53,538 nucleotides of DNA, from assembly GCA_900552245.1 (NCBI GenBank), contig URYY01000001.1, positions 1-53,538 of the forward strand. The letters are read 5' to 3'. The number at the start of each line of letters is the position of its first letter. Position 1 is the stretch's first letter. This DNA is from an uncultured Opitutales bacterium. GTDB taxonomy: Bacteria > Verrucomicrobiota > Verrucomicrobiia > Opitutales > Intestinicryptomonadaceae. The notes below the pieces were generated by a model. The model was not told the DNA's origin. It did no database searches and was given only the letters and a program-made list of their open reading frames with translations. The position numbers and the translations under genes were made by a program. This document shows positions 2,229 through 43,813 of the stretch, one piece after another.

Positions 2229-2297
2229 AAAATTCTTTTTATAATTATAGACTTATAACTTTGCATTCACATAAAAGTCAAACGGCAAAGGCAAGTT

Positions 2298-2356
2298 AAA
2301 AAATGAACGATTGTTCATTTTTTGCTTGACCTAAAAGTGAACGCTCGTTTACTTTT
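2298..2356 (+). promoter_or_regulatory. shc promoter with two palindromic TetR-type operators
   Basis: AAAAAATGAAC-GATT-GTTCATTTTTT (2298-2323, perfect 11-bp arms) and AAAAGTGAACG-CT-CGTTTACTTTT (2333-2356, one mismatch) flank a -35 TTGACC (2326-2331). Confidence 0.75.
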
Positions 2357-2385
2357 CCGGGCTTTAATTGAGAATTTGAAAAGTT

Positions 2386-4407
2386 ATGACAGACACCCGA
2401 AGCGAAGAGTTAAAATCCGATAAAAGCATAGCCAAACACCTCGATAAGGCTGTTGAATGGCTCTTGGACAAGCAGCAGGAAGGCGGTTTCTGGAATGCGG
2501 AAGTCGAGACAAACTGCTGCATGGAGGCCCAGTGGCTCATGGCAATTTACTTCTGCGGCATAGACCACCACAAAAAGCAGGGCGTCATAGATTACATACT
2601 GAATTGCCAGCGCGAAGACGGCGCGTGGGACGTCTATACCGACGCACCAAACGGAGATATAAATACGACGCTCGAATGCTACGTCGCACTGCGCCTTTCC
2701 GGATTTTCCAAAGACGGCGAGGTCCTCACAAAGGCGCGCGCATGGCTTTTAAAGAACAAGTGGCACAAGCACATAAGGGTGTTTACGAAGTACTGGCTTG
2801 CCCTTTTTGGAGAGTGGAAGTGGGAGCACACGCCGGATTTGCCGCCTGAAATCATATACTTTCCAAAGTGGTTTCCATTTAATATATACAACTTCTCGGC
2901 ATGGGCGAGAGCAAGCATGATGCCGCTTACGATAGTTTCGGCAATAAAGCCCGTCAAGGAATTGCCGCCAGAACTGCGCCTTGACGAACTCTATCCTGAA
3001 GGCAGAGAAGCGGTGGACTACAGGCTGTTAAGAGACGAAAAAATCTCAAAGGTATCTTGGAAAAAATTTTTCCTTACAAGCGACAGGCTATTGCACGTTT
3101 ACACGAAGCTTTCAAAAAATTCGCGCATACGAAAGCATGCGATGAAATCCGCGATGGAGTGGATACTTTCGCACCAAGACGACGACGGTTACTGGGGTGG
3201 AATCCAACCGCCTTGGATTTACGGAATAATTGCGATGCACATTTTGGGCTACTCAAAGAATCAAGTAAATATGGCAAGGGCCCTAAATGCCGTGGATTTG
3301 CACTGGAGCGAAAAAACTCCAAAGGGAATACGCATAAAGGCCAGCGAAAGCCCCGTGTGGGACACCATGCTATCGGTAAACGCCCTCTTGGAAGCGGGGC
3401 TTACGCCGAGTTGCAAGAAGCTTTCAAATGCGGTGGATTACCTTTTAAATATGGAAAACCGCCACTATGGCGACTGGTCGAATCTAGTCGGCAGGAAAGT
3501 TGAACCAAGCGGTTGGTCATTCCAGCGCTCCAATGTGTATTATCCGGATATAGACGACACTGCGGTTGCGATGCTTGCGCTTAAAAAATTTAAGCGTCTA
3601 CTACCCTCCTACGATCAGAGGGCTGCGAGGATAGATGCGGCCTTGAGGCGCGCGGCAAATTGGATAATTGCAATGCAATCTAAAAACGGAGCGTGGGCTG
3701 CATTTGACAGAGACAACACAAAGGCCATAATCACAAAGCTGCCATTTTGCGATTTTGGAGAGGTGCTGGACCCTCCGAGTAGCGACGTGACAGCGCACGT
3801 AATAGAAGCCCTCGTAAATTGCGGCTACGACCGCAAGCACCCCGTCTTGCAACGCGCTTTGGAATTCCTCTACAAAGAGCAAGAGAGCGACGGCTCATGG
3901 TTTGGGCGCTGGGGCATAAACTACATTTACGGCACTTGGTGCGTGCTAACGGCTCTGGCGGCCGCCGGCGACACAAAGCAAGACGAACACATAAAGCGCG
4001 CGCTAAACTGGATTTACTCGCGCCAAAACCGCGACGGCGGCTGGGGCGAGAGTGCGGCAAGCTACATGGCGCCCCTATCCGCCGGCGAGGACGCAAAATC
4101 CACGGCTTCTCAAACCGCGTGGGCTCTAATTGCGCTTTTAAATTTTGAAGACAAGTTAAATCCGGCAATAAAAAGGGGCATAGAATTTCTAAAGTCAACG
4201 CAACTTGAGGACGGCTCATGGTATGAAAATGAATTTACCGGAACAGGTTTTCCGGGCTACGGGCTAGGGGCAAAAGTCGATTTGCGCGCGGGCAAGCCTC
4301 TGCCCCAGGGCAAGGAGCTCTCAAGGGGCTTTATGCTGCGCTACGGCTATTACTGCCAGTACTTCCCCATAGTTGCGCTAAGCCTTGCAAAGAAGACTCA
4401 AGCATGA
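2386..4407 (+). CDS. shc: Squalene-hopene cyclase
   Basis: Catalytic DxDD (YPDIDDTA); QW repeats (QQEGGFW, QREDGAW, QSKNGAW, QESDGSW, QNRDGGW, QLEDGSW); SPVWDT, GRWGINYIYGT and GTGFPG motifs. Confidence 0.95.
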   Translation: MTDTRSEELKSDKSIAKHLDKAVEWLLDKQQEGGFWNAEVETNCCMEAQWLMAIYFCGIDHHKKQGVIDYILNCQREDGAWDVYTDAPNGDINTTLECYVALRLSGFSKDGEVLTKARAWLLKNKWHKHIRVFTKYWLALFGEWKWEHTPDLPPEIIYFPKWFPFNIYNFSAWARASMMPLTIVSAIKPVKELPPELRLDELYPEGREAVDYRLLRDEKISKVSWKKFFLTSDRLLHVYTKLSKNSRIRKHAMKSAMEWILSHQDDDGYWGGIQPPWIYGIIAMHILGYSKNQVNMARALNAVDLHWSEKTPKGIRIKASESPVWDTMLSVNALLEAGLTPSCKKLSNAVDYLLNMENRHYGDWSNLVGRKVEPSGWSFQRSNVYYPDIDDTAVAMLALKKFKRLLPSYDQRAARIDAALRRAANWIIAMQSKNGAWAAFDRDNTKAIITKLPFCDFGEVLDPPSSDVTAHVIEALVNCGYDRKHPVLQRALEFLYKEQESDGSWFGRWGINYIYGTWCVLTALAAAGDTKQDEHIKRALNWIYSRQNRDGGWGESAASYMAPLSAGEDAKSTASQTAWALIALLNFEDKLNPAIKRGIEFLKSTQLEDGSWYENEFTGTGFPGYGLGAKVDLRAGKPLPQGKELSRGFMLRYGYYCQYFPIVALSLAKKTQA

Positions 4408-4979
4408 AAAACGCAAAGGAGCTAATACTTGAGCACACCTTCATTTTGATGCTTGAAAGGGGTCTGGACGGAGTTTCCGTAAGCGGATTGCAGGAGGCTA
4501 CAGGGCTATCCCGCGGGCTCTTATACAGGTATTACAAGAATAAGGACGAGCTAATTTTGGAAGTGTGCAAGCGCTACTTCTTCGAGCGCTACTTTACTTT
4601 TGATGTAAACTTAAACGAAATATCGCTTGGCGACTTTATAAATCTTGCAGAGAAATCGGCAAAACAGCTCTTCAAATCTTTGGAGAATATTTCAGGCAAG
4701 AAGGTAAACATATTGCGCTACAATATGCTCTACGCAGATGTCTTGGATAGATTGCCCCAATTTAAGGACTACGCTGCAAGCGAAATTAAGAAGATGCGCA
4801 TTGTTTTAAAAAGCTCAATTAGCCGCGGAGAGATAAAAGATTTGCCGGTAGATTTTCTGGAAAACGTGCTCTTAGATATACTAGGCAGGGTCGCTTGCCT
4901 ATCAAGCGGCAACAATCCAAAAATCTCAGATATTTTTAAAGACAGCAAGCGCTTCTACAAGCTCATAAAAAAGGGCTAA
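4404..4979 (+). CDS. TetR/AcrR-family transcriptional regulator
   Basis: N-terminal HTH (ERGLDGVSVSGLQEATGLSRGLLYRYYKNKDELI); ATGA overlap with the shc stop. Confidence 0.9.
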   Translation: MKNAKELILEHTFILMLERGLDGVSVSGLQEATGLSRGLLYRYYKNKDELILEVCKRYFFERYFTFDVNLNEISLGDFINLAEKSAKQLFKSLENISGKKVNILRYNMLYADVLDRLPQFKDYAASEIKKMRIVLKSSISRGEIKDLPVDFLENVLLDILGRVACLSSGNNPKISDIFKDSKRFYKLIKKG

Positions 4980-29846: not shown

Positions 29847-32800
29847 ATGTTTCTAAAACAGGTTGTCATAAACGGCTTTAAGAGCTTTGCGGACAAAACC
29901 GTAATGAATCTGCCCAAGGGCATTACTTGCATAGTTGGGCCAAACGGTTGCGGAAAGAGCAATATAGTTGACTCAATACGCTGGGTCTTGGGCGAACAGA
30001 GCGCAAAGGCTCTGAGAGGCGGCAAGATGCAAGACGTTATATTCCAGGGCACAGATAAGCGAAAGCCCCTTCAATTTTGCGATGTAAGCCTCCTATTTAG
30101 CGAGTGCGAGCAGCAGCTGGGCACGAATTTTAACGAGGTTGAAATCTCAAGAAAAGTTTCGCGCGACGGCGGCAGCGAGTACTTCTTAAACGGCAAGCCC
30201 GCAAGGCTTAAGGACATCCAGAGGCTCTTTATGGACACTGGTATAGGCAGGGTGTCCTACTCCTTCATGGTTCAGGGGCAGATAGACCAGATACTGTCTT
30301 CAAACCCCGGAGAGCGGCGCACTATTTTTGAAGAGGCGGCGGGAATTACAAAGTATAAAACCCAGCGCCGCGAAGCCCTGAATAAGCTTGAGCTAGTGGA
30401 CCAGAACTTAGCGCGCGTAACCGATAGAATAGAGGAAATCGGAAGGCAAATCGGCTCGCTAAAGAGGCAGGCCTCAAAGGCACTGCGCTACAAGCGCCTA
30501 AGTTACAGGCTGCGCCACTTAGACATCGCTTTAAACGCAAAAAATTACTCCGAAGAAAACGCAAAGCTTGAAACTAGCGAAGCCGAACTGCAGGAAATAA
30601 CGAGGCAACACGAAGAATTTTCAGCAGAGCTTAGGGAAAAGGAGGAGGAGCTCGCCGCACTCAGGTCGAGGCGCGCCGAGACGCTTGCAAGCTTGGAGCA
30701 AATACGGCTAGCGGCGGCTGAATTGCGCTCGCAAAAGGAGCAGGCGGAGCACGCGGCGGAGTTTTCAATTTTAAGAAAGAAGGACTTAACAGACAGAGCC
30801 TCGCAAATAGACGTAGAATTAAACTCCTTAAATCTACAGCTTGAAGCTCTTGAGGGGCGCGCGCGCGGCGATTCAGAAACACGCCAAATGCAGTTAGACT
30901 TGGTGGCCGGCAGCGACGAAACTTTCGCCCTGCAAAACGCCCAGCTTTCGGAACTTGAAAGTCTCTTAAAGGAGGCCGAGCTTGAGCTAGATAGGGCAAA
31001 GCAGGATCTGCTTGTAAGCGAGGGCAACATAACGCGCCTGCGCTCAAAATCGACATCGCTTGAGCTCGAGCTAAAGTCTTTCCAGGTGCGCCATGCGGGA
31101 ACGAGCGATTTGCTCTTTCAGGCGCGTGAGGAGCTGGAAGTTTTGGGAACTCGCCAAGAGGAGATAAATCAGGCCGCAGAGATGTCAAACGAAAGGCTAG
31201 CGGCGGCTGAAGCTGATATTTTTAGCGCGACAAAAAAGATAGACGAGACGCGCACCCGCTACCGCGATTGCCAAGTCTTAATACAAAATTGCGACCGCCA
31301 GCTCGCCGCAAAAGCTGCGAGACTCAGCTTGTTAAACGACTTTCAGAATCGAATGGAGGGCTTCTCTGACGGCGTAAAGGCGATAATGCAGGGGAAGTTA
31401 AGCGACGTAATTTCGCCCGAGCAAACGAGGGTTGTAAGCCAAAATATAGAGGTTGAAGAGCCCTGGACGCGCGCCTTTGAAACTATGATGGGCGCGGGGC
31501 TAGACGCCGTGGCGCTTGAAGATGCGGAAAAGTTGGGCGCAATAATTTCTGCAATAAGGCAAAAGGGACTCGGCAAGGCCTGCCTGCAGCTGCCGGGAGA
31601 GTCCGACTTTGACAGCACCTGCCCTCTCGATGATGGAATTTACAGGGCCTCTGATTTTGTCAAGGCAGACAGAGACGACGAAGCTCTGAAAGCCCTTGTA
31701 AATAAATTGGTTGCGGGCTGCTACTTCTGCGAGGACATCTGCGCTTTCCAAAAGTTTTTAGAGAAAAACAAGGGCTTTAAATTTGCGCTAGCCGTATCCA
31801 AAGACTGCAATCTTCTGGATAGCCGCGGCATAGTTTACATTTCAAATTTAAGCGCCTCCGACACAGAATCTAGCTTCATTTTGCGCAATAAGGAAATAAA
31901 GCGCCTAAATGAGGAAATTGCAGCCGATAACGAGCAATTAACAAGCCTAAACGAACAGGCTATGGCTATAAATTCCGAGTTGGAAATGGCGGAGCACGAG
32001 CTTGAATCGGCGCGCCAGGCAAGCTCTGAAGTCAAGCGCGAGCAGGCGTCGATAGAAGCTCAAAAGAAGGCTTTGGAGGCCTCTGCAGCATCAAAGAGAG
32101 CAGAAATAGAAAAGCATCAGGCTGCTTTGAACGAAATGGAAAATTCCCGCTTTGAAGCCCAGGGCAGGCTCGACGCCGCCCAAAAGGAGATGCAGCAGGC
32201 GGAAGATGCACTTGCGCTGGGGCGCGAGACCATAGCGCAAAACGAGGCAAAAATCGCAGAGCTTAGAATGCAAAAGGAGCAGAAGTTTTCCGCCCTATCC
32301 GGCGCGCGATTGGATCTTGCCGAAAAGAAATCAAAGCTTGAAAATTTGGAGAGGGGCCTGAGCGCAATACGCCAGCAGCAGGCCGAAACCCGCGAGCTAA
32401 TAGCAAAGAGAGAGTCCGAAAAAAGGACTATTTTAGAGCAAATACAAACTCTGGAAAGCGACTCAAAGAGCTCTGACGAGAGGGCAAAGGCAATCGCACA
32501 ACAGCTTGAGAGCGCACAAAAGCTCATAGATGAGCGCAAGCTCTTGCTGTCGGAATCGGAAAGCAAGGTTGCAGAGTTTGAAGAGTCTATGAAGAGCAAG
32601 CGTACAAGGCAGGTTACGCTTTCCGCCTCAAAAAGCGAGCTTGAAGTAAAAATTGCCACACTAAAATCGCGCCTGAGTTTTATCGTTGAAAGGATGCTCT
32701 CAGATTACGAGACGAACATAGCCTTTGTAGATTGGAAGAGGGAGCTGTGGCTTGCCGACGAAGAGTTTGAAATAAAGCTTAAGCTCGACGATTTGGAAGA

Positions 32801-33563
32801 TGGCGATTTGGACGCAAAGCCAAAGCGAAAGCGCGGCGAACCAACAGAGGAGGATTTTAAGGCTATGGACGAACTAAACTTCTCCGAATTGGAAGCCGAG
32901 GGGAAGCAGTTGCGCGAAAAGATTTCGGCAATGGGGGCCGTAAACCTCGTCGCTATCGAAGAGTATGCCGAGCTAAAGGAACGCTACGACTTCTTAAACA
33001 CTCAAAGTGAGGATTTGTGGAAGTCGAAAAATGAGCTTGTCGCCGCTATTGACGAGATAAACGGAACGAGCCAAAAGTTATTTGCCGAGACTTTCGAGCA
33101 AATAAGAAAGAATTTTGAATTTACATTTAAAAAGATATTCGGCGGAGGTGCCGCCGACTTGCGCTTAGTCGAGAGCGAAGATGTCTTGGATAGCGGCATT
33201 GAAATTGTTGCGCGCCCTCCGGGAACCGTCCTAAAGAGCCTATCTCTACTTTCCGGCGGCCAAAGGACAATGACGGCGGTGTCGCTTTTATTTGCAATAT
33301 ACATGGTAAAGCCCAGCCCCTTCTGCGTCTTGGACGAATTGGACGCGCCTTTGGACGATGCAAATATAGGTCGATATACGGATATTCTCAAAGAGTTTAC
33401 GCGCTACTCTCAATTCTTGGTAATTTCCCACAGCAAAAAGACTGTCTCTGCTGCGGATACAATTTACGGAGTTACGATGCAGGAGCGCGGAGTAACGAGG
33501 CTTATATCGATGCGCTTTAATCCGGATACAAACGACACGCAAGAGACGGATTCCGTGGCCTAA
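29847..33563 (+). CDS. smc: Chromosome segregation protein SMC
   Basis: GFKSF, Walker A GPNGCGKSN, long coiled coils with central hinge, LSGGQ signature and Walker B LDELDAPLD. Confidence 0.96.
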   Translation: MFLKQVVINGFKSFADKTVMNLPKGITCIVGPNGCGKSNIVDSIRWVLGEQSAKALRGGKMQDVIFQGTDKRKPLQFCDVSLLFSECEQQLGTNFNEVEISRKVSRDGGSEYFLNGKPARLKDIQRLFMDTGIGRVSYSFMVQGQIDQILSSNPGERRTIFEEAAGITKYKTQRREALNKLELVDQNLARVTDRIEEIGRQIGSLKRQASKALRYKRLSYRLRHLDIALNAKNYSEENAKLETSEAELQEITRQHEEFSAELREKEEELAALRSRRAETLASLEQIRLAAAELRSQKEQAEHAAEFSILRKKDLTDRASQIDVELNSLNLQLEALEGRARGDSETRQMQLDLVAGSDETFALQNAQLSELESLLKEAELELDRAKQDLLVSEGNITRLRSKSTSLELELKSFQVRHAGTSDLLFQAREELEVLGTRQEEINQAAEMSNERLAAAEADIFSATKKIDETRTRYRDCQVLIQNCDRQLAAKAARLSLLNDFQNRMEGFSDGVKAIMQGKLSDVISPEQTRVVSQNIEVEEPWTRAFETMMGAGLDAVALEDAEKLGAIISAIRQKGLGKACLQLPGESDFDSTCPLDDGIYRASDFVKADRDDEALKALVNKLVAGCYFCEDICAFQKFLEKNKGFKFALAVSKDCNLLDSRGIVYISNLSASDTESSFILRNKEIKRLNEEIAADNEQLTSLNEQAMAINSELEMAEHELESARQASSEVKREQASIEAQKKALEASAASKRAEIEKHQAALNEMENSRFEAQGRLDAAQKEMQQAEDALALGRETIAQNEAKIAELRMQKEQKFSALSGARLDLAEKKSKLENLERGLSAIRQQQAETRELIAKRESEKRTILEQIQTLESDSKSSDERAKAIAQQLESAQKLIDERKLLLSESESKVAEFEESMKSKRTRQVTLSASKSELEVKIATLKSRLSFIVERMLSDYETNIAFVDWKRELWLADEEFEIKLKLDDLEDGDLDAKPKRKRGEPTEEDFKAMDELNFSELEAEGKQLREKISAMGAVNLVAIEEYAELKERYDFLNTQSEDLWKSKNELVAAIDEINGTSQKLFAETFEQIRKNFEFTFKKIFGGGAADLRLVESEDVLDSGIEIVARPPGTVLKSLSLLSGGQRTMTAVSLLFAIYMVKPSPFCVLDELDAPLDDANIGRYTDILKEFTRYSQFLVISHSKKTVSAADTIYGVTMQERGVTRLISMRFNPDTNDTQETDSVA

Positions 33564-34165: not shown

Positions 34166-34834
34166 ATGGCAAACGATTTGGATGAATTGACTGGTCCCGT
34201 AAACTCGCAGGGTCGGGATATAAACGTAATTGAAAAGCAAATTCCCGTAAAAGTTGGCTGGGGCTCCACGCTTTTTGAAGTTATGCTTTGGATTTGCGGA
34301 ATACTGCCGGGGCTAATTTTTCTATTTATGAAAATAAGCGCCTCTAATTACTTCAAAAAATTAGAGCAGAAGATACAGGCAGATGCGTCAACTATAGACA
34401 ATTACTTGGAGCAAAGAGCGGTAATTCTAAAAAATGTGGCAGCCTTGGTCGGCAAGGCCATAGATTTAGATAAGGATGTAATGAAGACCGTTGCCGCCTA
34501 TCGCGGAGGCCGCGGCCCTGAGGCGGATTCCAAGAGAAATGAAGTATCCCAGCAAATTGACATCGCCTTTGGAAGGCTCTTTCCGCAGGTTGAGGCCTAT
34601 CCGGAGTTGAAGGCCCACGCGGCAATAGCCGATGCAATGCAGCAAAATAGCTATCTGCAAAAGGAAATAACCGCCGCGCGCTCCCTTTACAACGACTCCG
34701 TCGCGCAGTGGAATGCCGACATATTCTCTTGGCCCACAAAGATGATAGTTGCTGCAAGGGCTGGATACACAACGAGAATCCCCTTTACAACCTCTCGCAA
34801 AATTAAAGAAGAAGCCAGAGCTAGCTTTCTATGA
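34166..34834 (+). CDS. lemA: LemA-family protein
   Basis: N-terminal TM segment, IDNYLEQR, EAYPELKA and EITAARSLYNDSV..WN..I..WP. Confidence 0.88.
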   Translation: MANDLDELTGPVNSQGRDINVIEKQIPVKVGWGSTLFEVMLWICGILPGLIFLFMKISASNYFKKLEQKIQADASTIDNYLEQRAVILKNVAALVGKAIDLDKDVMKTVAAYRGGRGPEADSKRNEVSQQIDIAFGRLFPQVEAYPELKAHAAIADAMQQNSYLQKEITAARSLYNDSVAQWNADIFSWPTKMIVAARAGYTTRIPFTTSRKIKEEARASFL

Positions 34835-36516
34835 TTGAGGATGTTTACGAGCCTCTAGATCGCTACAAGTATGAGTTTGAAAGTAAATTTGTCGAGCTTG
34901 CCGAAAGCAAGTTCGACGAGCTTGTGAGGGAATCCGGAGTTGACGTAGAAAAGAATAGAAAGACTGTAGCTGAAATAAAGCAGTTAAAGTCGCGCCTTTC
35001 AAAATTATCAAGAAATAGGTCGATAAAACTTGCGCTTGTCCTCTTGTTTATAGCTGGGGCTATTGTGGGGCTTGCTTTTATAAGCGCAAATAAGCTTTTT
35101 ATACTTGGTGCAATTTTGTCCGCAATTTTTGCCTACATAAGTTATAAAAGCTACAAAAAATGCGATGAAATCTGCAATGATTTGGAACTAAAAAGCAGGT
35201 TAAAAATTTCAGAGGCGATGACGGAAACTCAGCCTCTAAATAAGCTCTACACATGGGATATGCCTGTAAAGCTCATAGAAAAATGCGTGCCGCGCCTAAA
35301 ATTTGACCCCTATTTTACCGCCGAAAGGCTGGGCGAACTCAGAAAAAATTTCGGCTGGAGCGACTCTTTTAACAGAAACAAGTCCATCCTCTTTTCGCAA
35401 TCGGGAGAAATAAACGGAAATCCCTTTGCCATTGGCGAATACTTGGAATTTCACTGGGGGCAAAAGCAGTACACAGGCTACAAGACTATATACTGGACCT
35501 CATATATACCCGATTCAAAAGGAAGAATGCGCCCCGTCACCCGCTCGCAGACGCTGAGTGCCACGATTTCAAAGCCCTATCCAGAATACGAAAGAAAGAA
35601 AGTTCTAATTTACGGCAATGAAGCCGCCCCAAACTTGAGCTTTTCGCGGGTGCCTTCGGGGCTATCCACCGCTGGAGACGGCGTATTTGCAGGTCTTAAA
35701 AAGTGGTGGACGCTTAGAAAGTTAAAATCATTCTCGCGCAATTTGAGCGATAAGTCAAACTACACACTAATGTCAAACCACGAGTTTGAGACTTTATTTG
35801 TCACAAAAGATAGAAATAACGAGGTTGAATACAGACTGCTATTTACGCCGCTTGCGCAAAGCCAGATGCTAAAACTCTTAAAAGACAATAGAAGCGGCTT
35901 TGGAGACGACTTCACTTTTATAAAGAATCGCAAGATAAATCTCATCTACGCAAAGCACCTTGACGAAACGCCCATAGACACAAATCCGGACAGATTCAAA
36001 AGCTGGGATTGCGGAGAGTCAAAGATGAACTTTATGCACTTTAATTTTAAATATTTTAAAAGCCTTTACTTTGCCTTTGCGCCGCTTCTTTCTATACCGC
36101 TTTACCAACAGAGCAAAACAAGAGATAAGATTTATGAAAGCCCCACCGAGACAAGCCCTAGTTTCTGGGAGCACGAGGCCATAGCAAATTACCTTGGCGC
36201 TTCCAACTTTGAAAGTCCGCTTTCAGACACTCAAAATATTTTAAAGACAAGACTCTTAGAGCAAAATGGCGGGATTAGCAAAGTTGAAGTCTGCGCGCAC
36301 GGCTTCAAGGGTATCCCGCGAGTGGAGTACAAGACTGTGATTGGCGGAGATCTAAGGCCGCACAGCGTGCCGATTGAATGGTTTGAATACGAGCCCGTAG
36401 AAAATAAGGGAACTATTTTTGTCGCCGAGACAAAAGAGGCGGCAGACAAATTTAAAACGGAAAATCTAAGGGAGGGCGAAACTCGCTGGCGCTCAATTTT
36501 CTCTTTTTTAGGATAA
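34831..36516 (+). CDS. MAG1210-like membrane protein (two N-terminal TM helices plus large soluble domain)
   Basis: Overlaps lemA by 4 nt. YEPL..Y, SG.INGNPF, K.YTG...I.W, KP.P.Y, AAP.LSFSR, EFE.LF...R.NEVEYRLLFTPLAQ resemble my recollection of the Mycoplasma MAG1210 family; needs HMM confirmation. Confidence 0.65.
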   Translation: MIEDVYEPLDRYKYEFESKFVELAESKFDELVRESGVDVEKNRKTVAEIKQLKSRLSKLSRNRSIKLALVLLFIAGAIVGLAFISANKLFILGAILSAIFAYISYKSYKKCDEICNDLELKSRLKISEAMTETQPLNKLYTWDMPVKLIEKCVPRLKFDPYFTAERLGELRKNFGWSDSFNRNKSILFSQSGEINGNPFAIGEYLEFHWGQKQYTGYKTIYWTSYIPDSKGRMRPVTRSQTLSATISKPYPEYERKKVLIYGNEAAPNLSFSRVPSGLSTAGDGVFAGLKKWWTLRKLKSFSRNLSDKSNYTLMSNHEFETLFVTKDRNNEVEYRLLFTPLAQSQMLKLLKDNRSGFGDDFTFIKNRKINLIYAKHLDETPIDTNPDRFKSWDCGESKMNFMHFNFKYFKSLYFAFAPLLSIPLYQQSKTRDKIYESPTETSPSFWEHEAIANYLGASNFESPLSDTQNILKTRLLEQNGGISKVEVCAHGFKGIPRVEYKTVIGGDLRPHSVPIEWFEYEPVENKGTIFVAETKEAADKFKTENLREGETRWRSIFSFLG

Positions 36517-36633: not shown

Positions 36634-37752
36634 TCACAATTTCCAGTACGGAGACAGTATCTCCTTTACCTGCTCTATGACTTTGCGCTGATCGCAAGTA
36701 AGATAATTTCTGACAATGAGCCCTTCGACGGGATCCTTCACTCCGGTATTTTCACCGCTTAAAGCCTCTATCGTCTTGAGTATGCAAAAGGCCATGTAGT
36801 TGCCTTTACCGCCCTCTAAAATTGCCACTAAGCGACCATCGGCATGGCGCTCGGCTATGCTTTTAATCATTCCGTAGAGCTTGAAGTAGCCATTGGCTGT
36901 AAGTTGCTGGCGACAAAGCGGATCAAATATGTTTGCAGCATAACCCGCAACGGCAACTACAAGTTCCGGCTTATACTCATCTGCTATCGGCAAAATTATG
37001 TCTTCAAAAGCCCTTATATAAGCATCGTCGCCGGCGCCGGATGGCATGGGAATTACAACGTTATACCCCTTGCCCTTGCCGCTTCCTATCCAATCTGCAT
37101 TTCTATCGGCTCTATTATTTTCGGAAAATGCGCCAGATTGGTGTATCTCGGCATACAAGACTTCGTCGGTGTCGTACCAAGCATCTTCAATGCCTTTTTT
37201 GTAGTGGTTATCTATATCGACAAGCATTATTCGCTTTAGGCCATATTTCTTGCGCGCATTTTCGATTAAAATATTAAAGTTATTTACAACGCAAAAACCA
37301 AACCCCTTGTCGCGCTCTGCATGTCCTGCCGGAGGGCGCTGCAGGCAAAACGCATTTCTGACCTTCCCGGACATTACGCAATCAAGCGCATTTAAATCTC
37401 CGCCGGCAGCTTCCCTTATGACATCAAGCCCGCCAACTCCTATTTGGCAGAATTCCCCGACTTCGCCGCCGCCACTCTTGCTGAGCTTTTCCAGCTTGTC
37501 TATGTATTCCTTTGCGTGAAAGCCAACTAGCTTTTCCTTATCTAGCTTTGCAGATTCAATACCCACAAGCTTTTCCAAAAGCCCGGTTTTTTTTAACATT
37601 TCGTAAGCTTGTGTAACGCGCTCTGGAGTATCGTAGTAATCGCTCGTACTCATGAGCGGATTTTTGCCGGCTGTCATGCATAGATAACCGTCACCGGCTT
37701 TATATTCGGCAAAGGCCGAAGAATACATTAAACCTGTCTTACTGCTTTTCAT
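36634..37752 (-). CDS. Histone deacetylase-fold (class II/HDAH-like) amidohydrolase with atypical active site
   Basis: TPER, H..EYI, AAGG, RPPAGHA, GFCVVNN, DIDNH, IHQ, G.G.G.GYNV.IP.P.G.GD..Y, DPL and LEGG. Confidence 0.85.
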   Translation of the reverse strand: MKSSKTGLMYSSAFAEYKAGDGYLCMTAGKNPLMSTSDYYDTPERVTQAYEMLKKTGLLEKLVGIESAKLDKEKLVGFHAKEYIDKLEKLSKSGGGEVGEFCQIGVGGLDVIREAAGGDLNALDCVMSGKVRNAFCLQRPPAGHAERDKGFGFCVVNNFNILIENARKKYGLKRIMLVDIDNHYKKGIEDAWYDTDEVLYAEIHQSGAFSENNRADRNADWIGSGKGKGYNVVIPMPSGAGDDAYIRAFEDIILPIADEYKPELVVAVAGYAANIFDPLCRQQLTANGYFKLYGMIKSIAERHADGRLVAILEGGKGNYMAFCILKTIEALSGENTGVKDPVEGLIVRNYLTCDQRKVIEQVKEILSPYWKL

Positions 37753-37783: not shown

Positions 37784-38263
37784 CTATCTAGCGCTCTTCC
37801 GCTTGAAGCCGGATACGGCCTTGTTTAAGAACTCTGTATATTTGTGAATGAAATTTATCGCGGCACCAATTTCTGCATCGCTAAAGTCTTTAAAGAACTC
37901 TTCATTCTTCTTCTGCCATTTGCGATGAATCTTCTCATGGGCTTTAAATACGGCCATTCCACTGTCGGTGAGCTTGTAGTATATTTCCTTCTTATTTGCG
38001 CTGTTTCGGTAGGCGGATATGGCCCCGCGAGCCATGAGTTTTCTCACAAGCTTGCTGGTGCCGCCCCTAGTCATCTTGAGAGCTTTGGAAATTTTTGTAA
38101 CATTCGGATTTTCGACTCTTGCTATGGTGTCTATGCAATGCATTTCGCTTATCGTATAGTCCAATAAAATTGGATCAGCATTATCTTTAAACGCGGCATT
38201 AAAGGTGTCGAAGGTGTTGGACATGTCCGACATAACGCTGTTTAAGTCTCTTTTCAAATCCAT
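37784..38263 (-). CDS. MarR-family transcriptional regulator
   Basis: SEMHCIDTI...NVTKISKALKMTRGGTSKLVRKL...NKKEIYYKLTDSG winged helix. Confidence 0.9.
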   Translation of the reverse strand: MDLKRDLNSVMSDMSNTFDTFNAAFKDNADPILLDYTISEMHCIDTIARVENPNVTKISKALKMTRGGTSKLVRKLMARGAISAYRNSANKKEIYYKLTDSGMAVFKAHEKIHRKWQKKNEEFFKDFSDAEIGAAINFIHKYTEFLNKAVSGFKRKSAR

Positions 38264-38267
38264 AATT

Positions 38268-38330
38268 TTGTTTCCAAGTTAACAATAATTGAGACAAAAT
38301 CTTTCACATTTTGTTTCCTTGTCAACAAAA
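38268..38330 (-). promoter_or_regulatory. marR promoter with two TTGTT-N8-AACAA operators
   Basis: TTGTT-TCCAAGTT-AACAA (38268-38285) and TTTTGTT-TCCTTGTC-AACAAAA (38309-38330); the second covers a minus-strand TTGACA (38325-38320). Confidence 0.7.
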
Positions 38331-38662
38331 AATTTTTAAATATATAAAATTTAAACTTCCCGATTTGCTATTCAGGAAATCTTGCCATGGATATGAAATG
38401 CGCTAGCAGGAATCACTTAAAATACAAAAATTAAAGAGCTAAGCAAAGAATTGAAAATATACATAAGCTTTTACAAAAAAGCTCAAAAGTTACAATTTTA
38501 AAGGACCTTACAAATTGTACACCCCAAAGAACCAATCAATATCATCTGTAATTCAAGCTTTGAGCGCTGCTTACTTGCGGGGCATAGCTAAGACAAACTG
38601 AAAACACACTAACTATGAGACTATTTACAAGCGCGCAAGATCTGCAAGATAAAAAAGAAAAA

Positions 38663-38692
38663 CCCCGCTAAAAAACCTTTATTTTAGCGGGG
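38663..38692 (-). terminator. Terminator hairpin downstream of tRNA-Arg
   Basis: CCCCGCTAAAA...TTTTAGCGGGG with an upstream A-run, i.e. a U-tail on the minus strand. Confidence 0.75.
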
Positions 38693-38702
38693 TAAAGAGA
38701 CG

Positions 38703-38774
38703 CGCTCCTACTGGGAGTCGAACCCAGACCGATGGTACCGGAAACCATTGCTCTATCCATTAAACTATAGGAGC
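38703..38774 (-). tRNA. tRNA-Arg(CCG), CCA not encoded
   Basis: Reverse complement GCTCCTA-TAGTTTAATGGATAGAGCA-ATGGT-TTCCGGT-ACCAT-CGGT-CTGGG-TTCGACT-CCCAG-TAGGAGC-G folds into a full cloverleaf. Confidence 0.95.
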
Positions 38775-38884: not shown

Positions 38885-39667
38885 ATGTCCGCAAAAGTGT
38901 TTTCAATCGCAAATCAAAAAGGCGGCGTGGGCAAGACAACCACCGCCGTAAACCTCTCTGCTGCCCTAGCGCGCCGTAAAATTAGAACCCTAATTATAGA
39001 CATGGACCAGCAGGCCAGCGCGACAAGCGCACTGGGCCTTGAGAAAAAGGAGGGCGCAAGCCTCTACAAAGTTTTATGCGGAGAGGGATCTGCAAAAGAC
39101 AAAGTTCTGGATACGGGGCGGAAAAATCTTTCCATAATACCTTCAGAAGTCGATATTTCGGCGATAGAAGTAGAATTGTCGGGGGCGGAAAACTACCTGA
39201 TGAGGCTCAAGGAGTGCATTAAGGATTTGAAAGAATCCGACACTTACGATGCCATAGTAATAGATGCTCCGCCATCGCTGGGCCTTCTTTCAATGAATTC
39301 GCTCGTCGCAAGCGACTATCTCTTGATAGCGCTTCAGTGCGAGTATCTGGCAATGGAGGGCCTGGGGCAGATTATGGGCGTTGTCGAGCAGCTTCAAAAT
39401 GCGGGTGTGAGCGACACACTGCAAGTAGGCGGCATAATAATGACCATGTACGACTCGCGCACAAACCTTTCAAAACAAGTGGTAAATGAAGTTAAAACGC
39501 ATTTGGGAGATCTGGTCTTTAAGACTATGATTCCGCGCACGGTGCGCCTTGCCGAAGCCCCGAGTTTCGGGCGGACGATTTTTGAGCACGCCAGATTTAA
39601 CGAGGGCTCTTTTGCCTACGATAAACTCGCAAAAGAACTCATACAACGCTTTTCACTGAAACAGTAA
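38885..39667 (+). CDS. parA: ParA/Soj-family ATPase
   Basis: NQKGGVGKTTT deviant Walker A, DAPPSLG, QCEYLAMEGL, TMYD.R and IPRTVRLAEAPSFG. Confidence 0.93.
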   Translation: MSAKVFSIANQKGGVGKTTTAVNLSAALARRKIRTLIIDMDQQASATSALGLEKKEGASLYKVLCGEGSAKDKVLDTGRKNLSIIPSEVDISAIEVELSGAENYLMRLKECIKDLKESDTYDAIVIDAPPSLGLLSMNSLVASDYLLIALQCEYLAMEGLGQIMGVVEQLQNAGVSDTLQVGGIIMTMYDSRTNLSKQVVNEVKTHLGDLVFKTMIPRTVRLAEAPSFGRTIFEHARFNEGSFAYDKLAKELIQRFSLKQ

Positions 39668-39668
39668 A

Positions 39669-40439
39669 ATGATAACGCTAAAGGGCTACATAAAAGGGCT
39701 AATGAAGCGCAGAGTTCTTGCAAAGCGCAAGAATACGCGCAAAAAGATGCTTTCAAAGCGCTCGCTCGAACAATTCGGCGAATTGGAGAAGCGCATAGGC
39801 TATATTTTTAAGGATAAGGCCCTGCTTAAGCTCGCCCTCACGCACCCGAGTGCGATGAACACGGCGCACTCTAGGATAAACTCAAACCAAAGGCTTGAGT
39901 TTTTGGGAGATGCAGTCTTGCAAACCATAATAAGCGACTTTGTATTTAAGAGCCTCGAAGACAAGCCCGAAGGCGATTTGACTCGCGCAAGAATAGCGCT
40001 CACACACGGTAAATTTCTGGCAAAGTTGGCCGACAGATTGGGGATACCGGAAAGTTTGATACTGCCAAAAAAGCTCTCGCACCTGCGCGAGGTTGCGTCG
40101 GCGAAGGAGGATTCGATTGAAGCCCTCATAGGCGCTATATATCTGGATTGCGGCTTTGAGAACACAAAAAAAATAGTTCTTGGCTGGTACGAGTCCGCAA
40201 GCCTTGACGTTGAAGAAATGGTGGACTCGCAAAACCCCAAGGGGCAGTTGCAGGAGTTGGCGGCAAAGAAGAAAATGACCGTTGAATACAAGTTGCTCTC
40301 GCAAATAGGCCCCGACCACGACAAAAAATTCGAGATGGCTGTTCTTGTAAACGGCGAAGTTTACGGAAGCGCGATAGCCAGCTCCAAGAAGCAGGCCGAA
40401 ACTGAAGCCGCTGCAATAGCCCTCAAAAAGCTCGTATGA
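39669..40439 (+). CDS. rnc: Ribonuclease III
   Basis: ALTHPS, NQRLEFLGDAVL, D.IEALIGAIYLD and dsRBD (NPKGQLQE, GPDH, SKKQAE). Confidence 0.95.
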   Translation: MITLKGYIKGLMKRRVLAKRKNTRKKMLSKRSLEQFGELEKRIGYIFKDKALLKLALTHPSAMNTAHSRINSNQRLEFLGDAVLQTIISDFVFKSLEDKPEGDLTRARIALTHGKFLAKLADRLGIPESLILPKKLSHLREVASAKEDSIEALIGAIYLDCGFENTKKIVLGWYESASLDVEEMVDSQNPKGQLQELAAKKKMTVEYKLLSQIGPDHDKKFEMAVLVNGEVYGSAIASSKKQAETEAAAIALKKLV

Positions 40440-43400
40440 TTAGCGCAAAATTTGCCCCGCAAAGTAAAGTAGTGTTTTATCCAAACCTAGCTATGGCTTG
40501 CACAGGGGCGCTTGTCGCTTCAATTTCCGAAAAGTACGGCGGAGTTAAAATCGTGCTTTGCGATACTGTGGGAGAGTGCGAAAAGCTATACCCCAAAGTC
40601 GCCGCCTTTTTAAAGTTGGAAAATTGCGTGGACGATTTGCGCGTCCTGCCCAAAATCCTGCCTAAGGAGGATCCCGATTTCTTTGAGAGCTACTGCGAGA
40701 GAGTCGGAACACTAAATGCAATGTCAAGCGGGGCAAATCTGACTATTCTGACAACGCCAGAGGCACTTATGCAGGAAACTCCGGTTCAGGCGGAGCATCT
40801 GGAATTGAAAGTCGGAGGAAAGTTTGACATTCAAACTCTCAAACAAAAGCTTGTCGACTTTGGCTACTACAACGAAGTTCTCTGCGAAGGTCCCGGACAA
40901 TTTGCCCTCAGAGGCGGAATTATCGACATATATCCGATAGCCGCCCGCTCTCCATACAGAATAGATTTTTTTGGCGACGAAATAGATTCGATAAAGCCCT
41001 ACGATCCGGACACTCAACTTACGCAGAGCGATAAGCTTGATAAGCTTCAGATAGACTCTTTTTTAAGCACTCAAAACCACCTGCCAAGCTACGAATTTTT
41101 GTCAAAGCAGCCGGCCACGTGGATTTTCATAGAGCCCCAGAGGCTTTCCCTCGAATATCCGGAACTATTCAGTGTATTTGAAAATTCAAAAGATTCGCGC
41201 AAGAATCTACAAATTGTCTTTGACGCAAGAAAAAGCGACACATTCATAGGCCTATCTTCCCTAGCAGAGAGTGGTGAGCTATTTAAAGAAGCTAAGCTTG
41301 AGCTTTTAAATACTGAGGATCTAAGCCAGTACCGCCCGCTTCCGATGAGCGAAGGCGTGGGTGTTGAGCGTTTTGAATCGGAGCATCAGCTGCGCTTAAA
41401 CTTTATAAAGAAAATCGCCGAATGGGCAAAGAGCGGCTATAAAATTTATATTGAGGCCGAGGGAGAGGGCGAGCGCGAGCGCATAGCGGAAATGTTTGCC
41501 GAGTGCAAATTAAAGACTCCAAAGTTTGAATTTATAGAGCCATTTTTTGGCGAGGGCTTTTTGGTAAGTTTTGAGGCGGGGCAAAGTCCCTTTAAGTGGC
41601 GGGGCATGGACGAGAAAGCCAAGGGGCTTGTCTGCGTAGGCCAGCTTGAAATTTTTGGAAGGCGCATAAAGTCAAACATAGCGCCGCGCCGCAAAATGCT
41701 TACGCGCCGCGCGGAAGTCGATTCTCTATTGGATTTTTCAGAGCTTAGCGAGGGCGATTACGTGGTGCATATAACGCACGGCATCTGCCGATACCAGGGC
41801 ATCACTACGCTGGAGTCGTCGGGTACAAAGCAGGAGGTTTTGAAGCTCGAATTTGAAGACAAGGCTATCTTGTACTTGCCGCTTCACAAGTCGCATTTAA
41901 TAAGCCGCTACATTGGGCTTGATAAGAGAGTTCCGAAGCTCTCAAAGCTCGATTCGCGCGCGTGGATAAAAGTCCGCACTGCGGCCGAGACTGCGGCCCT
42001 AGACTACGCAAGCGAACTTCTTGACTTGCAATCAAAGCGCGAAATTGCAGAGGGCTACGCCTTTGCGCCGGATACCAATTGGCAGACAGCCTTTGAAGAT
42101 TCCTTCCCATATGTGGAAACTCCGGACCAACTCAGGGCCATAAATGAAGTCAAAGCCGACATGCAAAAGCCCGTTCCCATGGATAGGCTAATCTGCGCCG
42201 ACGTCGGCTTTGGCAAGACCGAGATTGCCCTGCGCGCCGCATTTAAGGCTGCGATGTCAGGAAAGCAAGTTGCAGTTCTCTGCCCCACAACCATACTTTG
42301 CCAGCAGCACTTCAAGACTTTTAGGGAGCGAATGGCGCCCTACCCCGTTGTTGTCGAGATGATGTCCCGCTTTAGAAAGCCAAGAGAGTTGGCAAAAATA
42401 AAAAGCGAGCTTGCAACCGGAAAAATCGACATAGTAATAGGCACTCACGCCCTACTTGCAAACGACGTAAAGTTCAAGGATTTGGGGCTTTTAGTAATAG
42501 ACGAGGAGCACCGCTTCGGGGTAAAGCACAAGGAGAAGATAAAGCACATAAAGGAGGGCGTTGACGTGCTTACCATGAGCGCAACTCCGATTCCGCGAAC
42601 GCTTTATTTTGCAATGATGGGCGCAAAGACTATAAGCGTGATAGAAACTCCGCCCAAGAACCGCTTTCCAGTAGAAACCATAGTTAAGGAGTATTCCGAC
42701 GAAACCGTGCGCGAGGCTATACGCCGCGAGGTAGAGCGCGGCGGACAAGTATTTTACCTGCATAACCGAGTAAAGACCATAGAGGAAACTGCAAAGCGCC
42801 TTGAAGCAATGTTTCCGAATTTGAGAATCGGCGTAGGCCACGGCCAGATGGACGAACGGGAGCTTGAAAAGTTGATGGGCGACTTTATGGACGGCAAGTA
42901 CGACATCTTGGTATGCACCACCATAATAGAGTCGGGCTTGGATATTCCAAATTGCAACACCATAATAATAGAGGGGGCGGACAAATTCGGGCTCGCGCAA
43001 TTGTATCAGCTAAGGGGAAGAGTTGGGAGATTTACAAGGAAGGCCTACGCTTATCTTTTGCTGCACAGGCATGCGCAAATAGTGGCCTCCGCCCACAAGC
43101 GCCTAAGCGCCATACGCCAGTACAATAAACCCGGAGCCGGCTTTAGAATAGCCACGCGCGACTTGCAGCTAAGAGGCTGCGGCAATTTGCTTGGAGCAAA
43201 GCAAAGCGGGCACATAGCAAGTGTCGGCTTTGATATGTATTGCAGCTTATTAAAGCAGAGCATTGCCCGTTTAAAGGGCGAAAAGAGCGCATCATGGATA
43301 CGCTCAACAGTGTCGCTTGATTTTATAAGCCTTGGTGAAGGAGGCAAGCGAGAAGAGTCGCTATCAAACGCAAACAACATGTTTGAGGAGCTAAAGGTGC

Positions 43401-43813
43401 TCCAAATAAAAGAGGCGGGCGGCAAAATGCTATCGGCCTACATTCCCGAAAGCTACATACCGCAAACTCAACTTAGAATAGACCTTTACAGGCGCCTGGA
43501 ACTCAGCGCGAGCATAGAGGAGATAGATAAAATCGAAAGCCAGACAAAAGATAGGTTCGGAAAAATTCCCGACAGCGTGAAATACTTGTTTGAGCTCGCA
43601 AAAATAAGAGTTTACGCGGAGTTAAACTCGATTCTGAAAGTCGAGACGGAGGGGGATGTGCTAAAGTTGCGCAAGGCAAATCCGGCGGAGATAGAATTTG
43701 TAAAGATAAACGGGCACTTTCCAAGGCTATCCAAGAAGGATTCAAAGTCGCGGCTTTTAGAGATAAAGAGATTCCTGCGCGATATTCTGCCGTCAATAAC
43801 TAAAAAGGCTTAA
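40436..43813 (+). CDS. mfd: Transcription-repair coupling factor
   Basis: [12 protein letters not shown] (GDYVVH..HGI), [34 protein letters not shown] motif and TRCF domain. Confidence 0.96.

Follow-up and report, generated by a model that had tools for sequence, protein, structure and literature searches.

The active-site architecture of bacterial deacylases has been described as 'totally conserved', with the essential residues all kept in the enzymes selected for study (PMC11532494, Graf et al. 2024). In one of them, KpHdaH, zinc is held by Asp181, His183 and Asp269, the catalytic dyad is His143/His144 and the relays are Asp179 and Asn186, while the potassium ion termed K+1 is bound by Asp179, by the carbonyls of Asp181 and His183, by the side chain of Ser202 and by the carbonyl of Leu203 (PMC11532494). 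The counterparts in zebrafish histone deacetylase (HDAC) 6, zHDAC6, are the zinc ligands D612, H614 and D705, the dyad H573/H574, of which H574 is the general base, and Y745, which stabilises the intermediate (PMC10367051). KpHdaH belongs, with PA3774, Bordetella HDAH and Kdac1, to the cluster 1b histone deacetylase-like amidohydrolases (HDAHs), and it is with these that the protein considered here has most in common. Its gene, at 36634..37752 on the minus strand of a 53,538-nucleotide stretch of DNA from an uncultured Opitutales bacterium (contig URYY01000001.1; this whole stretch is called the window below), has an ATG start and, as a preliminary description of the sequence had stated, is a full-length open reading frame (ORF), encoding 372 aa. 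It is a member of a compact HDAH-type subfamily whose classical Zn2+/K+ catalytic centre has, as read from the alignments, been dismantled and built anew.

That the protein has the fold is clear. It matches PF00850 (Hist_deacetyl) over residues 42-315 with an E value of 2.4e-65 and 221.3 bits, against a curated cutoff of 27.9, and its sequence matches in the PDB include propanil hydrolase PrpH (E 1.6e-63) and dimethoate hydrolase DmhA (E 2.8e-62). An AlphaFold2 model, for which the input was 68 subfamily sequences, has a predicted local distance difference test score (pLDDT) of 93.9 and a predicted template modelling score (pTM) of 0.94. Superposition of a model on PA3774 or Bordetella HDAH had been suggested at the outset; with Foldseek these two, PrpH, Kdac1 and KpHdaH superpose over the full length at template modelling (TM) scores of 0.90-0.92, with a root-mean-square deviation (rmsd) of ~2 A and 28-33% identity. 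The best partner is Pseudomonas aeruginosa HDAH PA3774 (TM 0.92, rmsd 2.0 A, 368-370 columns), the N-terminal L1 loop being included. As modelled, the 372-aa protein is an HDAH-type HDAC fold, 'cluster 1b'-like in the terms of PMC11532494 (class IIb-like). A head-to-head dimer, head-to-head oligomers being a feature of cluster 1b enzymes, is also predicted: with two copies the prediction is symmetric, with an ipSAE of 0.89 against 0.00 for the best control, a contact agreement between runs of at least 94% and a pLDDT of at least 93. Among proteins of solved structure, 20 of 30 pairs and 1 of 23 single chains attained this mark. The L1-loop region (23-38), loops 207-211, 275-283 and 317-319, and residues 345-357 contribute to the predicted interface, so that the pocket rims would face each other. 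The dimer score may, however, reflect no more than likeness to, or recall of, solved HDAH dimers.

The motif strings that the preliminary description had picked out are where it placed them, with PPAGH beginning at residue 140, DIDNHYKKG at 179, GYAA at 270, DPL at 277 and EGGK at 313. Ungapped HMMER alignments with HDAC6 and P. aeruginosa HDAH pair RPPAGHA with RPPGHHA, DIDNHYKKG with DWDVHHG(N/Q)G, AGYAANIFDPL with AGFDAxxGDPL, and EGGK with EGGY. In the alignment with catalytic domain 2 (CD2) of zHDAC6 an offset of +37 maps chain positions 536/537, 575, 577, 668 and 708 onto H573/H574, D612, H614, D705 and Y745. KpHdaH numbering is common to the window protein up to residue 203, and a 3-residue insertion after that puts the equivalent of Asp269 at position 272. 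What the window protein keeps is His144, Asp179, Asp181, His183, the GFC tunnel wall and the EGG loop, all of which the cluster 1b enzymes have as well, with near-identical numbering; what is changed in it is Gly143, Lys185, Lys186, Glu202, Ala272, Asn274 and Lys316.

Several of these points had been recognized from the sequence at the start, namely the replacement of the first catalytic His by Gly143 with His144 kept, that of the Tyr by Lys316, and the presence of Asp181 and His183, and the alignments to HDAC6 and PA3774 agree with all of them. The claim that the metal ligands are intact has to be given up. It took Asp277 of DPL as a retained zinc ligand; the third ligand is instead the Asp of GFD (zHDAC6 D705, KpHdaH Asp269; PMC10367051, PMC11532494), which is aligned with Ala272, and so the zinc triad is broken. 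Asp277 is present in 34 of the 36 canonical sequences discussed below as well, and yet is no zinc ligand. Nor is the potassium site intact, the K+1 Ser being Glu202. This change and Lys185, which stands where canonical enzymes have an invariant Gly, go beyond those first noticed. Of the features that characterize classical deacylases the window protein therefore fails four, the Asp-His-Asp zinc triad, the double His, the EGGY Tyr and the K+1 Ser, and because these are defining it is not filed here as a zinc-dependent deacylase despite PF00850 and the HDAH fold.

The changes are not peculiar to one sequence. A word-indexed search gave 188 relatives among 4677 candidates, and the residue counts that follow rest on 120 of those 188, aligned with the query. 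The rows were split by residue 272 into 72 with Ala (the query and 71 clusters, of at least 340 aa), here called variant, and 36 with Asp (at least 300 aa), here called canonical. A further 13 rows, fragments or broken or chimeric sequences, were left out of the counts; those that cover the motifs carry the variant states. As the split was made on position 272, that position is itself no evidence, but the others are. His, present at position 143 in all 36 canonical rows, occurs in none of the variant rows, which have Ala (59) or Gly (13). Position 184 is His in 36/36 canonical rows and Tyr in 71/72 variant ones; position 185, Gly in 36/36, is Lys in 72/72; and position 202, Ser in 35/36, is Glu in 72/72. 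At position 274 the canonical rows are mixed while 71 of the 72 variant rows have Asn. The EGGY Tyr (36/36 canonical) is never found at 316 in the variant rows, where there is Lys in 61, Gln in 4 and other residues in 7. By contrast, His144, Asp179, Asp181 and His183 are invariant in the 72 variant rows and in the canonical rows alike. Position 186 is less regular. Replacement of the relay Asn by Lys186, as originally noted, is correct for the window protein, but it is not a state of the subfamily, in which K (43), N (12) and others (17) are found among the 72 rows against Asn in 35/36 canonical ones.

Other states specific to the subfamily are Tyr39-Tyr40 replacing His-Pro, Val155/156 replacing Phe, a small residue at 210 replacing F643 of zHDAC6, and Asn182, Cys136, Gln282-Gln283 and Gly317. 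Tyr39-Tyr40, Asn182 and Gln282-Gln283 are, like Lys185, Asn274 and Tyr184, polar residues newly made invariant in the subfamily. The subfamily-specific positions fall at or beside active-site residues listed in the quantum-mechanical (QM) region of PMC10367051.

The 72 rows have identities of 47-99%. A FastTree phylogeny of 112 rows places all 31 variant rows in a single clade, with a Shimodaira-Hasegawa (SH)-like support of 100 and a stem of 0.57 substitutions per site. Next to this clade are canonical Bacillales-type proteins (37-41% identity), and their union with it has a support of 95. Within the variant clade the Lys316 core is a single clade (support 100), and the outer rows have Gln, Ala, Ser, Gly or Phe at 316. 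Nei-Gojobori ratios of nonsynonymous to synonymous substitution (dN/dS) are 0.083-0.238 for the 8 unsaturated pairs, below the value of 1 proposed as a test at the outset; all 12 pairs with the window gene are saturated at synonymous sites, with dN of 0.18-0.42. With states fixed in 72/72 rows, against the classical residues in 36/36 canonical ones, in one clade on a long stem, and with dN/dS of 0.08-0.24, what is seen is not decay. As judged from these comparisons, the active-site changes are concerted and under purifying selection, which is what the preliminary description had proposed; the close homologues, for which it had considered an all-canonical HH/Y pattern as a sign of strain-specific loss, are without canonical HH/Y. 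An exhaustive search of a library at 50% identity yielded one full-length representative of the subfamily (71% identity) and a few fragments, everything else being at or below ~44%; the subfamily is a compact one.

The earlier suggestion of an undescribed subfamily is borne out as far as literature searches reach. Members go under the generic names 'hypothetical protein', 'class II histone deacetylase' and 'arginase family protein' in their source records, NCBIfam assigns no family to the HDAC-like protein, and a search of the ESM Atlas with it gave generic 'class II histone deacetylase' clusters only. No lineage like this one is mentioned in the available part of PMC11532494, keeping in mind that its supplementary data might list such sequences, and full-text literature searches on bacterial HDAC pseudoenzymes and on an HDAC-like partner of SaxA found nothing.

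In comparison with the cluster 1b enzymes, then, His143 has become Gly or Ala, Gly185 Lys, Asn186 variable, Ser202 Glu, Asp269 Ala272 and Tyr313 Lys316, and the tunnel residue equivalent to F643 of zHDAC6 is small (Ala, Ser or Pro), unlike in cluster 1b. The Ala that most of the subfamily has at 143 is the same as that of the laboratory H143A mutant (PDB 5g13). PrpH and DmhA, among the best matches in both sequence and structure (TM ~0.90), are precedents for leaving lysine deacetylation for xenobiotics (PMC11532494); the window subfamily differs from them in being without the classical residue set. Class IIa HDACs and the HDAC10 pseudo-deacetylase domain are likewise HDAC folds with natural catalytic replacements and weak or absent classical activity. 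Class IIa HDACs retain the zinc triad and both His. Their change is from Tyr to His (PMC13763078). The HDAC10 pseudo-domain belongs to a eukaryotic protein of two domains, in contrast to the subfamily, whose bacterial members stand alone and have polar residues newly fixed in the pocket.

How such a pocket might work can be considered from its charges. Canonically Zn2+ and K+ (+3) face three Asp; here Lys185 and Lys316 (+2) face Asp179, Asp181 and Glu202 (-3), and Lys186 often adds +1. The Lys and Glu charges roughly balance those of the former Zn2+ and K+, and for this reason the pocket may be near neutral without metal. Most likely the active site contains little or no metal and would suit a substrate that is anionic or activated, and Lys185 with Glu202 could be a tethered cation that replaces K+1, zinc or both. 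With the Tyr and the first His gone, a classical amide would be a poor substrate. In HDAC6 the Y745F mutant retains hydrolysis of an activated substrate, H574A has no activity, and the general-base His is indispensable (PMC10367051); since the Tyr mutant is active on an activated substrate, His144-based hydrolysis of an activated or anionic substrate is plausible. We infer that the HDAC-like protein is not a classical zinc-dependent acyl-lysine or acetylpolyamine deacylase.

A pointer to the pathway comes from neighbouring genes in 29 related loci, 8 of them from genomes (L011-L018) and 21 from metagenomes. The neighbour that recurs in different lineages is a SaxA-like protein of the metallo-beta-lactamase (MBL) fold, co-directional with the HDAC-like gene and, from the coordinates, separated from it by gaps of ~0-40 bp, in 8 of the 29 (L011, L012, L018, L045, L046, L047, L048 and L052), or in 5 of the 16 with 800 bp or more of sequence to either side. 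The two genes are found in either order, and the loci include members of the Lys316 core as well as of the Gln316 outer clade. In the window genome (G000) the SaxA-like gene is at 872-1657, minus strand, of a 3.2-kb contig (C110; locus L057), preceded by an ArsR-type helix-turn-helix (HTH) gene at 1878-2240 on the same strand. Its product matches PDB 6brm, which is SaxA, a metal-dependent isothiocyanate hydrolase, over the full length with an E value of 5.5e-66, and 3rpc with 8.5e-58. A SaxA-like gene is held by 7 of 9 carrier genomes (G000, G042, G043, G045, G237, G246 and G247). As background, one is present in 1 of the 24 other genomes of the window's family, in none of the 16 remaining genomes of the order sample and, at E values up to 1e-40, in 12 of the 79 genomes in the family of G042 that are not carriers; at E <1e-70 there is a match in 5 of the 81 genomes of that family, with both carriers among the 5.

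Some observations on the SaxA-like genes stand by themselves. Among variant forms (L061 1375-2292; L052 511-1392; L060 1498-2715) two have signal-peptide-like N-termini and one is a 405-aa form with a C-terminal extension. Genome G215 has 5 SaxA-like copies, three of them at contig ends, and a mobile element may be involved. In Phascolarctobacterium-like loci a UPF0173 MBL gene (NF001911, 234 bits) follows the HDAC-like gene; it was considered as a link to SaxA and, being convergent and of a different MBL family, was not counted.

Because SaxA operon partners occur in both the Lys316 and the Gln316 clades and most carriers have a SaxA-like gene, the HDAC-like protein is tentatively placed in a module for the detoxification of isothiocyanates or related electrophiles. 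The reading that we tentatively favour, though we would judge its chances as falling somewhat short of even, is of a functional HDAC-fold protein that is not a zinc-dependent deacylase and works in such a SaxA-linked module. SaxA converts R-NCS and H2O to R-NH2 and carbonyl sulfide (COS) (PMC7036374); isothiocyanates react with thiols to dithiocarbamates and with amines to thioureas (PMC6767122). SaxA would destroy the free isothiocyanate, and the HDAC-like protein would take care of a conjugate derived from it, for instance a dithiocarbamate or a thiocarbamoyl adduct, which it would either bind or, by means of His144, hydrolyse, a conjugate-clearing partner of this kind being a complement to SaxA. 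In the window genome expression would be from a MarR-controlled operon of two genes.

A more specific version, which we consider rather improbable, is that of a metal-free HDAC-fold hydrolase, with Lys185/Glu202 as the tethered cation and His144 as the base, that cleaves isothiocyanate-derived thiocarbonyl conjugates and in this way complements SaxA. The conjugates would be dithiocarbamates and S- or N-thiocarbamoyl adducts on cysteine, lysine or small thiols, and the whole would be a gut-bacterial pathway for glucosinolate products. Chelation or poisoning of zinc sites by these substrates and by the products COS and sulfide might then explain why zinc was given up, sulfur compounds of this sort being strong zinc binders.

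Several points weigh against placement in a SaxA-linked module or against the rebuilt centre that goes with it. In the window genome the two genes are not adjacent, the SaxA-like one being on another, small contig, and 21 of the 29 related loci have no SaxA-like neighbour. No SaxA-like gene was found in carriers G041 and G044, in the second of which the HDAC-like gene is broken, and SaxA-like genes occur without an HDAC-like gene, as in the 12 of 79 non-carriers and in G015. The co-occurrence counts are suggestive but do not amount to a test, since the carriers are partly kin and the counts overstate their independence. A signal-peptide-like N-terminus is present on the SaxA-like protein of two lineages and absent from the HDAC-like protein, from which the two would work in different compartments and an obligate complex is unlikely. 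Ten Desulfovibrio-like loci have a ZntA-type P1B ATPase upstream, which points to metal homeostasis. Finally, the placement of Lys185, Glu202, Asn274 and Lys316 relative to the old metal sites comes from alignment and charge counting, and there may be an alternative third ligand.

The same pocket could be that of a pseudoenzyme, the old site having become a binding place for a carboxylate, a thiocarboxylate, another anionic small molecule or a modified lysine, in a protein that serves as sensor, sequestering protein or reader. This is possible, though we regard it as unlikely. Loss of three of the six classical catalytic or metal positions would be in keeping with it, and so would the drift at the former Tyr position (Q, A, F, S, G or R in 11/72, in the outer clade), as expected of a residue that is non-catalytic; the C-terminal pseudo-deacetylase domain of HDAC10 is a precedent (PMC11532494). 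Yet the general-base His144 and also Asp181 and His183 are invariant in all 72 rows and have new invariant polar residues around them. The gene moves singly or with an enzyme partner between metagenome-assembled genomes (MAGs) assigned to different phyla, which favours a self-sufficient activity, and apart from an enzyme no conserved protein partner was found.

That metal has been kept and the enzyme is an amidohydrolase or esterase for small molecules, like PrpH and DmhA, seems less probable again. Asp181 and His183 would then be completed by a substitute ligand (Asn274, a Cys, water or the substrate), and the substrate would be an amide of dietary or xenobiotic origin. Propanil hydrolase and dimethoate hydrolase are among the closest structures, and both PrpH and DmhA are 1b enzymes that diverged to small molecules, with earlier work cited for the ability of Zn2+ to inhibit propanil hydrolysis by PrpH (PMC11532494). 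Candidate ligands exist, Asn274 being two residues past Ala272 and invariant (71/72) and Cys136 and Cys154 invariant or nearly so. Regulators of xenobiotic-response families (MarR, AraC, HxlR) and nitroreductases are nearby in several lineages. But the K+1 Ser that supports the zinc site is replaced and a Lys has been put beside the zinc His, which looks like the removal of a metal centre and not its retuning.

For metal homeostasis, as a zinc- or cadmium-responsive binding protein or as a metal-independent stand-in under metal stress, the prospects are poor. In its favour are the 10 Desulfovibrio-like loci with a ZntA-like Zn/Cd P1B-type ATPase with HMA domains directly upstream and co-directional (L036, L038 and L039, at 2278-4971, and 7 further loci; the gap is ~30 bp in L036), but this link is confined to those loci and may be one inherited arrangement. 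The MarR protein encoded beside the window gene is weakly similar to the zinc-sensing AdcR/ZitR, its His42, His109 and His113 aligning with His42, His108 and His112 of ZitR, and an ArsR-type regulator precedes the SaxA-like gene of the window genome. Against this, the MarR protein scores 40 bits where the AdcR cutoff is 175, FabT matches better and has the same His pattern, and the window genome, with 1 match in all, has no canonical HDAC paralogue for which a substitute could stand in. A decaying or strain-specific broken deacetylase gene, as might be supposed from the damage at 2 of 8 genome loci (a stop and a frame break in a Helicobacter MAG, the C-terminal half only in a Gastranaerophilales MAG), is refuted for the window copy by its intact ORF, substitutions that are the same in 72/72 rows, dN/dS of 0.08-0.24 and a confident fold, and hardly deserves consideration.

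At L054 and L055 what follows the ATPase gene is only a C-terminal remnant of the HDAC-like gene. In the Phascolarctobacterium-like loci, besides the convergent UPF0173 gene downstream, an AraC-type gene is divergent upstream. An HxlR-type gene and nitroreductases are near the HDAC-like gene in other lineages, and some lineages have no regulator as a neighbour. The nitroreductase-family genes of the high-GC loci L046 (1542-2117) and L048 (2623-3612) are a few genes upstream of the HDAC-like/SaxA-like pair, which fits a xenobiotic-response neighbourhood.

The HDAC-like gene is a rare accessory gene, horizontally spread among gut bacteria whose record titles span several phyla. It was not found in the 24 other genomes of the window's family, and in the order-level sample the 8 other matches are all canonical-type, with 29-35% identity. 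MAGs with the titles Desulfovibrio, Phascolarctobacterium, Helicobacter and Candidatus Gastranaerophilales have homologues of 65-78% identity, as does an uncultured bacterium from mouse gut, and subfamily members are also on gut metagenome contigs. With the known carriers included, 1 of 121 genomes in the family of G041 and 2 of 81 in that of G042 have the gene, these being samples and so no proof of absence. Its GC content tracks that of the host, from 37% to 66%, from which the transfers are not recent. The 2 damaged copies among the 8 genome loci fit a dispensable accessory gene. In the Helicobacter MAG (L016 6001-7286) the gene has a TAA stop and a frame break; in the Gastranaerophilales MAG (L018 6001-6597) residues 173-372 are all that is encoded, abutting the end of the SaxA-like gene. 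Carriage on plasmids or phages was also considered: the 163 plasmid and 6 phage records that match are all below 60% identity (top 38.8%) and so are canonical-type relatives, with no subfamily member among them. DNA nearly identical to the window stretch is present in runs labelled chicken gut metagenome. One run labelled RNA-Seq, which is probably DNA, gave only two 151-nt contigs, which fall on marR and the sequence immediately before it, and is no evidence either way.

In the window the gene is preceded, 31 bp upstream and on the same strand, by one for a MarR-family regulator of 159 aa (37784..38263, minus strand; PF01047, E 4.5e-7). No terminator-like site was found on the minus strand between the two, and they probably form an operon, in the window genome only. 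The preliminary description spoke of a dedicated regulator. This may hold for the window genome, but not as a feature of the family, as tblastn of the window MarR against the 8 genome loci had a best E of 5.5 and nothing credible (the 21 metagenome loci were not searched), and other lineages have AraC- or HxlR-type genes or none. The best named relatives of the protein are far under the NCBIfam cutoffs (FabT 55.2 bits, cutoff 200; AdcR family 40 bits), and going by these scores it can be called a generic member of the MarR family. Immediately before the start of marR, at 38265..38331 on the minus strand, are two 24-nt direct repeats, each with TTGTT-N8-AACAA (repeat family D2), which we take as candidate MarR operators; the distal one overlaps TTGACA.

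About 440 bp upstream of marR is tRNA-Arg(CCG) (38702-38774, minus), followed by a strong intrinsic-terminator-like hairpin (38662-38693, minus). Integration at this tRNA was considered, but neither an integrase nor a direct repeat of the tRNA end was found, and acquisition there is not shown. The inserted genes are flanked by SMC (29847-33563) and a ParA-RNase III-Mfd block (38885-43813), which sit on different contigs in genomes of the same genus; with no synteny within the genus, the local gene order is specific to the window genome. Between them, on the plus strand, are also a LemA-family gene and one for a 561-aa MAG1210-family protein (NF046000, 574 bits), at 34166-36516, with overlapping stop and start. 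The latter protein is patchy in distribution (5 of 25 genomes), and the LemA pair stays adjacent in three relatives, at other genomic places. PADLOC, which covers anti-phage defence, gave no match for the HDAC-like protein, LemA or the 561-aa protein.

The nearest described parallel for the proposed module is that of the sax (survival in Arabidopsis extract) gene sets, with which it has a SaxA homologue in common as well as the character of accessory, transferable detoxification genes under varied regulators. The described sets comprise efflux pumps, SaxB, SaxC and SaxA and no HDAC-like gene, the word 'deacetylase' occurring 0 times in the part of PMC12903958 available. Their hosts are plant pathogens whereas gut anaerobes are involved here, and in the window genome the SaxA-like and HDAC-like genes are not adjacent. 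Amine formation by faecal microbiota has been reported, with no enzyme named for it in the accessible part of that review (PMC6767122).

A lineage that has lost one zinc ligand, a catalytic His, the Tyr and a K+ ligand, and yet has been kept under selection across several phyla, either carries out catalysis in a new way on an old fold or is a clear bacterial example of an HDAC pseudoenzyme. Its recurrent pairing with SaxA-type hydrolases also offers an experimental way into the question of how gut anaerobes deal with the products of glucosinolates.

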